From: Corallococcus exercitus
Lineage (GTDB): Bacteria > Myxococcota > Myxococcia > Myxococcales > Myxococcaceae
Assembly: GCF_042231735.1 (NCBI RefSeq)
Contig: NZ_CP102577.1
Coordinates: 3,103,281 to 3,167,280 of the forward strand
Direction: 5' to 3'
Length of the DNA stretch: 64,000 nucleotides
Part shown: positions 5,032 through 10,040 of the stretch, piece by piece
Layout of the letters: each line of letters starts with the position of its first letter
Numbering within the stretch: position 1 is the first letter of the stretch
The notes under the pieces: model-generated
Told to the model about the DNA's origin: nothing
Seen by the model: only the letters and a program-made list of their open reading frames with translations
Database searches by the model: none
Program-made: the position numbers and the translations under genes

Positions 5032-6612
5032 TCAGGGAGGAGGCGGCGCGGGAATGGGACGAGCCGGAGCGGGCTCGCCCAGGATCAACAGCAGCTCCGC
5101 GCGGCGGTTCTCGCCCCGGCCCGCCTGTGTGCCATTGGAGCTCGCGGGCCGGCGTGCACCGAGGCCCCGGGCTTCCAGGCGGTGGGCCGGGACGCCCTTC
5201 CGCAAGAGGTAGTCGCGCACGGCTTCCGCGCGGGCCAGGGACAGGCGCTGGTTGGAGGCGGAAGAGCCCTCCGCGTCCGTGTGCCCTTCGATGACGACGC
5301 GCTCGACTTCCGGATGCTCCAGGAGCACCCGCGCCACCTGATCCAGCACGCGCGAGCGGCCCGGCAGCGTCGTCGCGCCGACCTCGAAGAAGACCTGGCC
5401 ATGGAGGACCAGGCGCTCGCGGGTCAGGGTGACGAGCGGGTCGCCGGACTCAGGGCAACCGCCGTACTCCCGCGTCCCCTTCTCATGGACGCAGGCATCC
5501 AGCGCGTCCACGACGCCGTCTCCGTCCGTGTCGGTCTCGATGCCTGACGAGTTCCCGGACGGCTCTGGCGTGGGCTCGGGAGGCGTGGGTTCAGGAGGCG
5601 TGGGCTCGGGCTCGAGCTGGGGTTCGGCGGGAGCACGTGGCAGCCCTTGGACGATCTCATAGACGATGTCCTCCGGGGGCGGAGGCGGTGCCTTGTCGAA
5701 GAGCAGGGCCAGTCCCGCAAGCACCCGGAAGCGAGGGGAACCCGGCTCCGAGCCAACCCCCGCCCCGCCCATGGCGAAGAATTCCCAGGGCCGAGCGGGT
5801 GCGTAGCGAAGGCCGCCGAGCAGCTCGCCGCTGGTGCGCTGCTGCCGCCAGGAGTACGCACCGTTCGCGGACACCTCCGCGCGGAAGGCGTAACCCACGG
5901 TGAGCCCCACACCGGCCCGCAGCTCGTTGCCCACGCCGTTGAGGCTGTCCACGCCGGAGTCCGTCGACACGGCGCGACGCAGGAGCACGCCCACTTCCAG
6001 CGCCGGAGCCACGGGCCCCCAGCGCTTGCCCATCATGATCCGTCCCTGCCCGCGGACACCCTGGTCACGAGCCAGCGCTCCCGAGCCGCCCACGGGCAAC
6101 CGCACGTCCAGGTCGAGCGCCAGGTGAAAGGCCTCGGGAGCGGAGGTCCCCAGCAATCCCAGCCGGGCCGCGAGTCGCGGTGCCCCCAACCCGCTGCGTG
6201 ACGGAGGGGAGATGGACAGCACGGTGCTCACATCCGCACCGCTCTGGTGGATGACGCCAGGAAGCTGGGCCTGAAGCTCCAGCCAGGGCAGCACACCGAC
6301 GGCCAGCGACACCAGTCCGGTGGTCCGGGACAGGACGAGCGGGTACTCGTCCGACCCGTTCAGGATGGTCAGGGGAGCCCGCTGGTAGTGCGCCATCAGC
6401 GAGACGCGCACCGCCCCGGGCGCCAGCAGCTCGCCGCTTCCGAGCGCCAACGGCCCCAGCCCCGGATTCGGATCCAGGCGCTCCAGGGAGAACGTCGGCA
6501 GGGGCGTGGCGTCCTGGGCGCGCGCGGGGGATACGAGCAGCATCAGTCCCAGCGCGGCCCCGCCACGGACGCATCGGTGCAAGGCCGGACCCATGCGCGC
6601 ATCATCCGTCAT
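5032..6612 (-). CDS. OmpA-family outer-membrane protein (N-terminal beta-barrel-like domain, Pro/Glu-rich linker, TSP3-like DxDxDG Ca-binding motif, C-terminal OmpA peptidoglycan-binding domain)
   Basis: The C-terminus ...HGQVFFEVGATTLPGRSRVLDQVARVL...VIEGHTDAEGSSASNQRLSLARAEAVRDYLL...NRRAEL is canonical OmpA_C. It has a DTDGDGVVDALDAC motif, an EPTPPEPTPPEPTP linker and a signal-peptide-like N-terminus (ALGLMLLVSPARAQD). The start is uncertain (6594/6612/6651). Confidence 0.85.
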   Translation of the reverse strand: MTDDARMGPALHRCVRGGAALGLMLLVSPARAQDATPLPTFSLERLDPNPGLGPLALGSGELLAPGAVRVSLMAHYQRAPLTILNGSDEYPLVLSRTTGLVSLAVGVLPWLELQAQLPGVIHQSGADVSTVLSISPPSRSGLGAPRLAARLGLLGTSAPEAFHLALDLDVRLPVGGSGALARDQGVRGQGRIMMGKRWGPVAPALEVGVLLRRAVSTDSGVDSLNGVGNELRAGVGLTVGYAFRAEVSANGAYSWRQQRTSGELLGGLRYAPARPWEFFAMGGAGVGSEPGSPRFRVLAGLALLFDKAPPPPPEDIVYEIVQGLPRAPAEPQLEPEPTPPEPTPPEPTPEPSGNSSGIETDTDGDGVVDALDACVHEKGTREYGGCPESGDPLVTLTRERLVLHGQVFFEVGATTLPGRSRVLDQVARVLLEHPEVERVVIEGHTDAEGSSASNQRLSLARAEAVRDYLLRKGVPAHRLEARGLGARRPASSNGTQAGRGENRRAELLLILGEPAPARPIPAPPPP

Positions 6613-6741
6613 GTTCCGCCCGGGGCGAAGGGGAATGGCGGCGCGCGGCATTCGTGCATCGTCACCGGAATGGATGCGACTCCGATTCCATTCCAGAATC
6701 CCAGACTAGACTGCGCCGGCAGCGCCCCCCACGGAAACACG

Positions 6742-6878: not shown

Positions 6879-8021
6879 ATGAACAAGCACCTTAAGCTCG
6901 ACGTGCAAGTCGCTGAAGATGACCCAATTCGAAAATCATTGCTCAACCAACGGGTACAGCACTTAGAATCTGATGGTCTGAGTGTTCCCGAAGATGAGCT
7001 TCTTACATATTCCTTGTTCTACGAGTGGGACAACTCTCCAGGATGGCGGAGCTACGCCGATCTGAACAGGAAGCTTCCAGAGCGACGCACCCGGTTTGGG
7101 GACTTCCTAACAACAGACGCAGAAGAATCCTACCGACTTCGGCGCAAACCAGTATCGGACATCATTGAGTCGCTGGGCATTGGAGCAGCTCTCTCTGTCT
7201 CAGCTAGATTACTAGGGGTAACCGAGGCAGATTTCCTGAAAGTCCCAGACACCTCACTGGGAAGAACATTGGACTTCGAAAGAAGCTATGTCGCATCCGA
7301 TGGCGATCACTCCTACCGAGTAGAAGCCAAAGGAACGCACGATGGAAAGAGCGTCTCTTCAGCTCTCGACTCAATTAAAGCCAAGAAAATCTTTGACCGC
7401 AATTCAAAACAAGACGATGCTACCCTTGTTGGTGTTGTTTTCGATTTATCACTAGAGCGAAAACGCACATCCAAGGTAATTATCACTGACCCACCGGCAG
7501 AACCGATCCCCGAAAATCCAATTCTTATAAAACTATGGGCCCGACTTGGCTTTTACTCAGCGGCGCTGCGAACGATTTCCCGTGGCTCAATCACTGCAGG
7601 ATTTGCACAGCGACTCCCCGTCACAAGAGCACTTGGGGATCAGTGGCGGAAGGTTGATGGAATACCTCTCGTCAACCCAAGCGGCTATCCACTTGCTGTC
7701 TCATGGAACAAAAGCGGCATAGTTACACTTGCTTCACGGGAGCGGATTTTTGGACGATTCTTTGGCCCTGCATCAAAATCAACACGCAGGCAAACATCCT
7801 CTGAAGATGTGTCCATCTTCATCGGCTTGACTGAAAACACAATAGAACTGCTCACCAAACAGCGCCTCGAAGAAATAATATACCACAAAGAACGAGAAAG
7901 AGTTGCGGAAGCGAGCTACCCAGCCTATTCGCCATTTGAGGCTCGACCGCCATTTCGCTTTCAACATCTGCGCGTTTTTTCTTCGGGTGTTGTTGTGGGA
8001 TACCTTATCGGCAACGTTTGA
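6879..8021 (+). CDS. Hypothetical protein (380 aa) encoded on AT-rich island; no confidently recognisable domain
   Basis: The 1143-nt ORF sits in a region visibly poorer in GC than the flanks (roughly 45-50% by eye against ~70%). Codon use is atypical for the host (many A/T-ending codons). Weak motifs only: LDFERSYVASDGDHSYRVEAKG (D-x17-ExK, PD-(D/E)xK-like) and IIESLGIGAAL ... ITDPPAEP (loosely SAM-MTase motif I/IV-like but lacking the aromatic residue). The start has no obvious RBS. Confidence 0.55.
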   Translation: MNKHLKLDVQVAEDDPIRKSLLNQRVQHLESDGLSVPEDELLTYSLFYEWDNSPGWRSYADLNRKLPERRTRFGDFLTTDAEESYRLRRKPVSDIIESLGIGAALSVSARLLGVTEADFLKVPDTSLGRTLDFERSYVASDGDHSYRVEAKGTHDGKSVSSALDSIKAKKIFDRNSKQDDATLVGVVFDLSLERKRTSKVIITDPPAEPIPENPILIKLWARLGFYSAALRTISRGSITAGFAQRLPVTRALGDQWRKVDGIPLVNPSGYPLAVSWNKSGIVTLASRERIFGRFFGPASKSTRRQTSSEDVSIFIGLTENTIELLTKQRLEEIIYHKERERVAEASYPAYSPFEARPPFRFQHLRVFSSGVVVGYLIGNV

Positions 8022-8163: not shown

Positions 8164-8242
8164 CACGAACGCGAACGCGCAGGCTGCGCGCGAGTAGAGT
8201 GCACAGGTCCAGTGCCGCAGTTCACGGGGGGAGGAGTCTAAA

Positions 8243-8770
8243 GTGCCTGAATTCTACGTTGAGGGGCCGTTCATTGTGCCGTGCATTGCAAAGGGGCATG
8301 GGAAAGTCGTCGACACGAAACGCTTGAAGGAGTTCTGGGAAGACCTCGGCGAGGGCAGGTCGTCCAGTTACGGCTGTTACGTTTTCGGGATGCAAGTCGG
8401 ACGAGGCCTCGTGCCAATCTATGTCGGCAAGGCCACCAAGAGTTTCAAGCAAGAGTGCTTCACGCTCGACAAGTTGTTCAAGACCAACGCATCGCTGCTT
8501 CACTGGAAGCGAGGCACCCCTGTTCTCTTTCTTGTGCCTTTGGAACGCAAGAGAGGCCGGGTTAACGCAGCCTTGATCGCTACTGCCGAGGAATTCCTCA
8601 TTCAGAACGCCGTCGTCCGTAATCCTAACCTTGCGAATGTTCGTGGCACCGAGCAGGAATCATGGGGAATTGCCGGTGTTCTTCGTGGTGGAAAAGGAAA
8701 GCCATCCGCAAGCGCGCGGGACTTCAAACGGATGATGGGGCTGAGACAGCGTTCCTCCCAGCCAGGATGA
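8243..8770 (+). CDS. Small GIY-YIG-like nuclease-domain protein (175 aa), second gene of AT-rich island
   Basis: It has a GTG start with a GGAGGAG RBS at 8228-8234. SYGCYVFGMQVGRGLVPIYVGKATKSF parallels the UvrC/I-TevI GIY-(x10-13)-YIG motif (cf. UvrC [21 protein letters not shown]). Downstream, ATAEEFLIQNAVVRNPNLAN fits the conserved Glu ... Asn of the fold. The canonical Arg after YIG is not obvious. Confidence 0.5.
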   Translation: MPEFYVEGPFIVPCIAKGHGKVVDTKRLKEFWEDLGEGRSSSYGCYVFGMQVGRGLVPIYVGKATKSFKQECFTLDKLFKTNASLLHWKRGTPVLFLVPLERKRGRVNAALIATAEEFLIQNAVVRNPNLANVRGTEQESWGIAGVLRGGKGKPSASARDFKRMMGLRQRSSQPG

Positions 8771-9096
8771 CTCCAGGATTGCAAAGTGACGACGTCGGTG
8801 GGGCTAGTGGGGTCCTCGATGCTGTTTCTCGCCTGCTGATCTGATGCGACGCGGGACACACCGCCGGAGCCGCAGGCCACGAAGGCAGACAGCCCCGTGC
8901 ACATCCTGGCGCCGCATAACAACTGTGACGAAACGTGGATGCTGGTTGTTGCCGCGTCTACAGCGACCGCGTGCCCTGCAACAATGGCATTGAGATGTAT
9001 GCCATCTGGACGCCGGGCGGCTGGTGCAGCCCGCGCGACGTCGCCAAAAGCAGCGAGGGCCCTGAGCTGGTCTGCCCGCAGTGACGCATCACGGAC

Positions 9097-9124
9097 CTCC
9101 CTGCCCTCAGCACGGGCAGGGAGG
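9097..9124 (-). terminator. GC-rich hairpin (11-bp stem CCTCCCTGCCC/GGGCAGGGAGG, 6-nt loop) 14 nt downstream of the folD stop
   Basis: The inverted repeat was read directly. No U-tract follows on the minus strand, so intrinsic-terminator function is uncertain. Confidence 0.35.
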
Positions 9125-9137
9125 CCCAACAATCACA

Positions 9138-9989
9138 TCACATCACGCCGCGCTGTGCCGCCTCCAGCGTGTTCTTCATCAGCATCGCAATGGTCATCGG
9201 CCCCACGCCGCCAGGGACCGGCGTGATGAATGACGCGCGCTCCGCCGCCGCGGCGAACTCCACGTCTCCCACCAGCTTGCCATCCGCCTTGCGGTTCATG
9301 CCCACGTCAATCACCACCGCGCCGGGCTTGATCCACGCGCCCTTCACCAGCTCCGGCACGCCCACCGCCACCACCAGGATGTCCGCCTGGGCCACCTCCG
9401 CCGGCAGGTCGCTCTTGCGGTGGCACACCGTCACCGTCGCGTCCTTCTGCAGCAGCATCAGCGCCTGGGGCTTGCCCACGATGTTGCTTCGCCCCACCAC
9501 CACCGCGCGCTTGCCCGCCGGATTGCACCCGACCTCTTCCAAGAGCCGCATCACGCCGTAGGGCGTGCACGCCCGCGTCGCCGGCCGGCCCAGCAGCAGG
9601 TTTCCCGCGTTCATCGGGTGGAAGCCGTCCGCGTCCTTCTCCGGCTTCACCGCGGAGATGATGGCGTCCGCGTCCAGGTGCTTGGGCAACGGCAGCTGCA
9701 CCAGGATGCCGTGCACCGCCGGGTCCTCGTTCAGCCGGTGCACCAGCGCCAGGAGCTCCTCCTGGGTGATGTTCTCATCCGGGTGGTGCTCCCAGGAGTT
9801 GAAGCCCACCTCCTCGGCGGCCTTCTTCTTCCCCGTCACGTAAATCTTGGAAGCCGGGTCCTCACCCACGCGCACCACGGCGAGTCCCGGGGTGATGCCG
9901 CGCTCCGCCTTCAGGCGCGCCACCTCCTCCTTGATCTCCGCCCGCACGCGCGCCGCCACTGCCTTGCCGTCGATCAACTGAGCCGTCAT
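9138..9989 (-). CDS. folD: Bifunctional 5,10-methylene-THF dehydrogenase / methenyl-THF cyclohydrolase
   Basis: [27 protein letters not shown]...[21 protein letters not shown]...[23 protein letters not shown] is canonical FolD over 284 aa. The ORF-track N-terminal extension to 10418 lacks homology. Confidence 0.92.
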
Positions 9990-10040
9990 GAGACCCACCT
10001 TATGCAAGACTGGCCCTGCACAAGGGAGCGAAGCGAAGGC

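Follow-up and report, generated by a model that had tools for sequence, protein, structure and literature searches.

A widespread family of small stand-alone proteins with a divergent GIY-YIG-like core and a conserved glutamate at the site of the catalytic arginine

A low-GC islet in the genome of Corallococcus exercitus carries a small gene whose product had been proposed, from the DNA letters only, to be a stand-alone GIY-YIG-fold nuclease that might be divergent or inactivated. The locus raises the question of whether this protein belongs to the GIY-YIG superfamily and whether a member without the arginine that follows the YIG motif could be a working nuclease. The window analysed here is a stretch of 64,000 nucleotides of contig NZ_CP102577.1, and the islet consists of two plus-strand ORFs between an OmpA-like gene (5032-6651, minus strand) and folD (about 9138-10000, minus strand). 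The GC content is 0.557 for the gene at 8243..8770, 0.49 for the ORF upstream of it and 0.70 for the window. On re-reading, the ORF of 175 aa and its motif stretches proved identical to those first transcribed (residues 42-70, SYGCYVFGMQVGRGLVPIYVGKATKSFKQ; residues 115-132, AEEFLIQNAVVRNPNLAN). An exact-sequence look-up identified the product as WP_375760162.1 of Corallococcus exercitus, named 'hypothetical protein' at NCBI. The features of the gene and its product are listed in Table 1.

Table 1. Features of the islet and of the family gene, in window coordinates (residue numbers refer to the 175-aa protein; fractions are counts among 260 family members)
Feature	Position	Strand	Evidence
Upstream islet ORF, 380 aa, GC 0.49	6879-8021	+	ORF list
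Conserved 5' leader travelling with the gene, includes the Shine-Dalgarno	8173..8242	+	blastn/MAFFT against the L007 locus
Shine-Dalgarno GGAGGAG	8230-8236	+	6 nt 5' of the GTG; kept in the closest relative's locus (L007)
Family gene, complete ORF, 175 aa plus stop, GTG start	8243..8770	+	ORF list
N-terminal extension, residues 1-40	8243..8362	+	AF2: strands 7-11, 14-17, 20-23; helices 25-35, 37-40; pLDDT 90-98
GIY-YIG-like catalytic core, residues 44-132	8372..8638	+	AF2 secondary structure and motifs
'GIY' half-motif G44-C45-Y46	8372..8380	+	G44 259/260, Y46 258/260; hhalign hairpin
'YIG' half-motif Y60-V61-G62-K63-A64	8420..8434	+	Y60 258/260, G62 260/260; hhalign
Q70-E71 at the canonical catalytic Arg site (I-TevI R27, UvrC R39)	8450..8455	+	Conservation and hhalign
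Putative metal-binding Glu E116 (I-TevI E75, UvrC E76)	8588..8590	+	E116 259/260; permissive hhalign
N127-P-x-L-x-N132 loop, motif-E Asn (UvrC N88, I-TevI N90)	8621..8638	+	N127 254/260, N132 256/260
C-terminal basic Gly-rich segment W141-x-I-x-G145-V-L-R148-G-G-K-G152-K-P-S, then helix 156-165	8663..8725	+	Conservation
Window-specific tail, residues 168-175, RQRSSQPG	8744..8767	+	Family alignment columns are gaps in >60-95% of members

The closest relative of the gene lies in an unrelated context on a metagenomic contig (L007) and shares 92% amino-acid and 85.5% nucleotide identity with it. Comparison of the two copies gave a dN/dS of 0.058, and therefore 8243..8770 is a functional gene under strong purifying selection. 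The DNA similarity detected by blastn and MAFFT starts at about 8173, and more weakly at about 8116, which places its onset about 70-130 bp 5' of the start codon; it ends at the stop codon of the relative, and the flanks are unrelated. A 1-nt indel relative to L007 (within 8742-8770) moved the stop codon, and this accounts for the eight non-conserved residues by which the C. exercitus protein exceeds its 167-aa relatives. Neither convincing flanking direct repeats at the islet borders nor a tRNA within 16 kb were found, and promoter and terminator predictions for the islet gave nothing informative. Just past the folD stop, at the right edge of the islet, we observed a GC-rich inverted repeat of 14 nt (9093-9127; 93% complementary, 7-nt loop), which is probably the folD terminator and would mark the end of the native sequence.

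The protein is a member of a large family, without annotation until now, whose members stand alone and are about 167 aa long. A word-indexed search returned 171 homologues of about this length, aligned from residue 1, and an exhaustive HMM search, run over 1.84 billion representatives, gave 1,731 clusters (50% identity) at E<=1e-3 and 431 at E<=1e-30. Nearly all of the 150 clusters listed are single-domain proteins of 165-175 aa. Among species-representative genomes the family is patchily distributed over at least 12 phyla, with hosts in Myxococcota, Nitrospirota, Alpha-, Beta- and Gammaproteobacteria, Planctomycetota, Acidobacteriota, Chloroflexota, Verrucomicrobiota, Gemmatimonadota and Armatimonadota, as well as in a Saccharimonadales genome, Fibrobacter and one Methanosarcinales MAG. 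Every relative with a name is called 'hypothetical protein'. When the window protein and 46 relatives were searched singly, Pfam gave no match at E<=10, including PF01541, PF10544 and PF13455 (MUG113), so that the PF01541 or PF10544 match proposed as a check in the original prediction did not appear. At the same threshold NCBIfam, PHROGs and PADLOC returned noise only, and the family profile searched against all PDB sequences gave nothing but a spurious match (E 0.79).

Structure prediction gave a fold like that of the GIY-YIG superfamily. Two AlphaFold2 runs, with 46 and 121 sequences, agreed with each other (pLDDT 87.0 and 84.9; pTM 0.83 and 0.82). In these models the core follows the order beta1 (44-52), beta2 (55-64), alpha (68-71/75-85), beta3 (92-100), alpha (109-126) and then the Asn loop, that is, a three-stranded antiparallel sheet with flanking helices in the beta-beta-alpha-beta-alpha arrangement by which the superfamily is recognised. 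The extension in front of the core has conserved residues of its own (F4, G8-P9, P13 and F31-W32 in the 260-member conservation table). The best four Foldseek matches in the PDB were all UvrC N-terminal domains (prob 0.63-0.85; TMt 0.57-0.59), and many top matches of the BFVD structure search were named GIY-YIG, homing or intron endonucleases. Comparison of the family with a verified UvrC/I-TevI alignment in hhalign gave a probability of 70-71% and an E-value of 3.6e-5 (for one comparison) over 25-28 columns; this confident similarity is that of the GxY...YVGKA hairpin only, and the reference was shallow, the I-TevI homology search having given only 9 close relatives. The hairpin likeness to the UvrC N-terminus and the fold, both part of the original prediction, thus held, and we regard a GIY-YIG fold as well supported and very probable for the family.

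GIY-YIG proteins are nucleases that use one metal, and the residues Tyr, Tyr, Arg, Glu and Asn define the class. Mutants deposited in the PDB mark these catalytic residues in the reference enzymes: Y19F, Y29F and N88A for UvrC, and, for I-TevI, the inactivating R27A (crystallised as 1ln0) and E75A (1mk0). In our family, nine positions reach a conservation of at least 97% among 260 members (G44, Y46, F48, Y60, G62, E71, E116, N127 and N132). Since G44, Y46, Y60, G62, E116, N127 and N132 each reach this level, the motifs cannot be put down to chance. In the hhalign alignment Y46 corresponds to I-TevI Y6 and UvrC Y19 and lies on beta1, as the GIY tyrosine does in the superfamily, while Y60 corresponds to I-TevI Y17 and UvrC Y29, and K63, which is K or R in 92% of the members, to UvrC K32 (UvrC numbering from the PDB sequences). 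The Tyr-x-Gly of the YIG half-motif, which in the superfamily stands on beta2 about 10-12 residues past GIY, is likewise present; the Tyr-to-Tyr spacing is 14 in the family versus 11 in I-TevI and 10 in UvrC, and the hairpin is therefore slightly longer.

The Glu and Asn of the catalytic core, which had also been pointed out from the sequence, were both recovered among the 260 members. E116 lies on helix 109-126, where L119 and I120 are found in at least 94% of the members, and the stretch E-x-F-L-I-Q parallels E-N-F-W-I-K of I-TevI and E-A-N-L-I-K of UvrC; E116 thus appears to be the counterpart of the metal-binding Glu, in a stretch where the alignment confidence is low. Directly past this helix come N127 and N132; N132 falls on the UvrC N88 column in permissive hhalign, and it (or N127) would be the counterpart of the motif-E Asn. 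This Asn motif is variable in the superfamily and may be missing or substituted (PMC1564403).

The arginine was described in the original prediction as not clearly present after YIG, and this holds for the whole family. In the superfamily it lies on helix alpha1, about 8 residues past the YIG Gly. An ungapped count in our family leads to Q70 (G62+8), and hhalign, with a 1-residue gap, puts E71 on the Arg column. Position 71 is Glu in 258 of the 260 members, with one Asp and one Arg as the exceptions, and position 70 is Gln in 65%. No invariant Arg was found anywhere in the 260-member alignment, in which the best basic candidates besides K63 are K77 (90%), R148 (80%) and R51 (78%; Gln in the window protein). 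E71 would accordingly be the family's Arg-to-Glu variant, its position in space being predicted from the alignment. We found no description of an invariant Glu at the GIY-YIG Arg site in the literature searched. Additionally, the C-terminal basic segment is conserved (W141 93%, G145 95%, R148 80%, G152 93% of the 260 members), with an AF2 pLDDT below 50 for residues 135-146 in both models and of about 80 for helix 156-165. This segment may be a DNA-contacting or oligomerisation element, and R148 within it is a candidate for a 'migrated' arginine.

Comparison with the known GIY-YIG systems showed that the family has the fold, the GIY and YIG tyrosines, the Glu and the Asn of the superfamily, that it lacks the Arg and that it escapes every existing sequence model searched. 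It is outside the UvrC/Cho, homing-endonuclease, Type II restriction enzyme, CMoRE and Slx1/UPF0213 families. The nearest structural analogue is T4 endonuclease II (DenA; PDB 2wsh), which has 12% identity to the family protein, keeps the canonical Arg and is encoded by a phage, whereas our family is essentially cellular. The UvrC N-domain (PDB 1ycz, 1yd0-1yd6) has R39 where the family has Q70/E71, and UvrC, about 600 aa long, has several domains and acts together with UvrB, whereas the family proteins stand alone at 167-175 aa without UvrB-binding, RNase H-like (EndoV) or HhH domains. Unlike I-TevI (PDB 1ln0, 1mk0) and the Seg proteins, they have neither a linker nor a C-terminal DNA-binding domain, the Arg27 position is replaced, and the family is almost absent from phage genomes, residence in phage or organelle genomes or introns being usual for homing endonucleases. 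Type II restriction enzymes such as Eco29kI, Hpy188I and Cfr42I have an adjacent methyltransferase, and none is conserved within 5 kb on each side of 86 family loci. The HpyAORF481P branch of the R.Hpy188I family (Kaminska et al. 2008, PMC2630997) consists of such methyltransferase-paired Type II enzymes; our family differs from it in having no conserved methyltransferase, no invariant alternative Arg and an invariant Glu at the vacated site. CMoRE/PD-T4-3 (PDB 9u75; PMC12923530) is a single-gene defence nuclease in which the catalytic Arg and Glu are conserved and a C-terminal domain senses 5hmC, whereas the family has no C-terminal modified-cytosine sensor domain and no PADLOC match. Slx1-like and UPF0213 (YhbQ-type) proteins resemble the family as stand-alone minimal GIY-YIG proteins without auxiliary domains (PMC1564403). 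They are recognised by PF01541, retain the Arg and as a rule have no Asn motif (PMC1564403), whereas our family does not match PF01541, lacks the Arg, keeps the Asn and has N- and C-terminal extensions.

Analysis of the genomic context indicates that the family gene is accessory and moves horizontally as cargo of a single gene. All-against-all clustering of the ORFs within 5 kb on each side of 86 loci revealed no conserved neighbour; the only widely shared clusters were the family gene itself and its antisense-frame artefacts. At two unrelated loci (the window and L007) the gene has a GC content of about 0.55 in hosts of about 0.69, and the DNA in common is the gene and its leader. The family was absent from all 50,697 phage genomes searched, and was found at 4 loci among 2.9 million viral contigs and in 4 plasmid records, all of them megaplasmids of 0.9-2.1 Mb, so that it is essentially non-viral and non-plasmid. 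Four Myxococcaceae genomes (L055 6229-12546; L040, L051 and L080) carry the gene antisense in a contractile-tail cluster, at a gene GC of 0.52 versus 0.68-0.70 in the flanks. The neighbours there are a PhageMin_Tail tape-measure gene, a T4_baseplate-like gene and a weak sheath-like gene, and the family gene sits between the baseplate-like and sheath-like genes. This is a moron-like placement in a locus that is a prophage, tailocin or eCIS. A likewise moron-like placement was found in a 31-kb IMG/VR contig (L102 3602-10673), one of the four viral contigs with the family, in which the gene lies antisense between tape-measure and tail-completion genes, with head protease and portal genes beyond.

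Defence or mobile-element hallmarks were found in about 10 of 13 independent neighbourhoods, a count without a background control for defence density. The neighbourhoods include a Type I R-M system, Mrr_cat and SIR2 on a PriCT/AlpA element; ISL3, TIR and BrxL; a reverse transcriptase and an nSTAND3 protein; PIN-TPR-GreABC and permuted GreAB-C genes; Mrr_N, SNF2, HATPase and IS66, and two HNH genes on another contig; an IS200-type transposase; an integrative element with integrase and SSB that has the family gene at its far end; cassette-like arrays with DpnII/MboI, PemK, DUF4160/DUF2442, integrase and IS3; and, on a Ralstonia megaplasmid, a GajB-like UvrD helicase, DarT, an ADP-ribosylglycohydrolase, IS elements and a group II intron. 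We found no report in the literature of a GIY-YIG-like family in defence islands.

Some of these loci showed arrangements of their own. A 2.6-kb block with 99.2% identity occurs in two unrelated contexts (L004 3528-6152 and L005 1186-3805). In it the family gene lies between an HNH-like gene (a weak PtuB-like PADLOC match), for which the gene callers chose opposite strands in L004 and L005, and a 288-aa ORF. This ORF has no family match and is unrelated to the 380-aa ORF of the window, and the block may be a lineage-specific three-gene mobile module. On the Ralstonia solanacearum megaplasmid AP024098.1 (L105 2827-8842) an operon-like set lies directly upstream of the family gene and comprises an ADP-ribosylglycohydrolase-glyoxalase fusion, DarT, a UvrD/GajB-like helicase and a DUF4236 protein; it forms a conflict module in which DarT is accompanied by a hydrolase that is not a macrodomain protein. 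At L094 (1138-11951), L095 and L096, short-gapped runs of small same-strand genes without Pfam match lie by tyrosine recombinases and toxin-antitoxin pairs and resemble chromosomal integron cassette arrays, a likeness that makes an integron-cassette origin conceivable.

The best explanation of these data is, in our judgement, that the family has a divergent GIY-YIG core, is an active metal-dependent nuclease and travels as accessory single-gene cargo; we consider this reading probable. That the whole GIY-YIG resemblance is a coincidence, and the fold an unrelated small alpha/beta domain, is very unlikely. A more serious alternative, although an improbable one, is that the family is a catalytically dead GIY-YIG derivative which only binds DNA or another ligand, as a regulator, scaffold or decoy, the Arg-to-Glu change having abolished hydrolysis. 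The opposite charge of E71 at the Arg site, the missing PF01541 signal and the restriction of the confident hhalign similarity to the beta-hairpin all speak for it. After a loss of catalysis, however, Y46, Y60, E116 and N127/N132 would not be expected to stay at or above 97% across at least 12 phyla, and the invariance of E71 itself points to a novel catalytic function. The superfamily also has documented active members whose Arg has moved or whose Tyr is substituted: in R.Hpy188I, which is active, Lys stands where the YIG Tyr would be, and in one branch of its family the "otherwise invariant" Arg was proposed to come from a non-homologous loop (PMC2630997). Since the four canonical catalytic positions and the new Glu are invariant across phyla, we favour a working rather than a decayed catalytic centre. 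Of the two options left by the original prediction, divergence therefore stands, with Arg replaced by Glu family-wide, and inactivation is the less favoured one. That the family protein is an active nuclease, which we infer from its conserved catalytic positions, seems somewhat more probable than not.

Two further explanations concern how the gene lives rather than what its active site does. One is that the family gene is a selfish, free-standing endonuclease gene of the homing type, which, like the T4 seg genes, would spread by cleaving empty sites. In its favour are the solitary state of the gene, its own leader, the confinement of the conserved DNA to the gene, the low GC relative to the hosts, the patchy distribution and the antisense insertions among phage tail genes that were seen in a viral contig and in the Myxococcaceae tail-like clusters. 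The virtual absence of viral copies, the lack of a NUMOD, IENR or HTH module to recognise a long site, flanking homology that is not co-transferred and the residence of most copies in chromosomal defence or mobile-element islands argue against it, and we hold it to be quite unlikely. The other explanation is that the family gene and the 380-aa gene act here as a two-gene module, of a toxin-immunity or restriction-like kind, as both are low in GC, adjacent and on the same strand, with a gap of 221 bp. The 380-aa ORF is, however, a true orphan, its sole match among 5.8 billion proteins being itself in Corallococcus exercitus, and it had no match in Pfam, PADLOC, PHROG, NCBIfam or the PDB. It is missing beside the 92%-identical relative in L007 and beside all other family members in the 86 loci clustered, and the two genes differ in GC (0.49 vs 0.56), which leaves such a module very improbable. 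As a separate observation, the 380-aa ORF has a D132...E147-A-K149 pattern that is, by eye, reminiscent of PD-(D/E)xK nucleases.

If the family protein is the active nuclease that we favour, it would be a divalent-metal-dependent DNA endonuclease or nickase, with E116 as the metal ligand and Y46 as the residue that activates the water. Candidates to stand in for the absent Arg are the lysines K63 and K77, R148 as an arginine that has moved, and a second metal bound by E71. Because the protein has no separate DNA-binding domain, it would probably resemble T4 EndoII in working as an oligomer and in showing little sequence specificity. Its most likely biological role would be that of a nuclease in conflicts between the cell and foreign DNA; such a role fits the neighbourhoods, and on this basis we propose it tentatively. 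A bolder version, which we consider doubtful, is that the family is a new single-gene anti-foreign-DNA defence nuclease in which the change of Arg to an invariant Glu gives a two-carboxylate, possibly two-metal, centre and the disordered but conserved R-G-G-K-G-K-P tail senses DNA or gates the enzyme. If true, such a centre would be one not yet described in the one-metal GIY-YIG superfamily.

In a family of more than 1,700 clusters, the "invariant" arginine of the GIY-YIG fold has been swapped for an equally invariant glutamate with four other residues kept, which extends the known chemistry of the fold. The family also fills an annotation gap left by the Pfam, NCBIfam, PHROGs and PADLOC models, none of which detects its members. 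At about 167 aa the protein is a compact nuclease scaffold for engineering, and, if it should be inactive, it would illustrate clearly how a nuclease fold can be exapted for binding. Its solitary state, together with its repeated siting near R-M, SIR2, TIR, BREX, DarT and retro-element genes, makes it a cheap candidate for a new defence or conflict system of a single gene.
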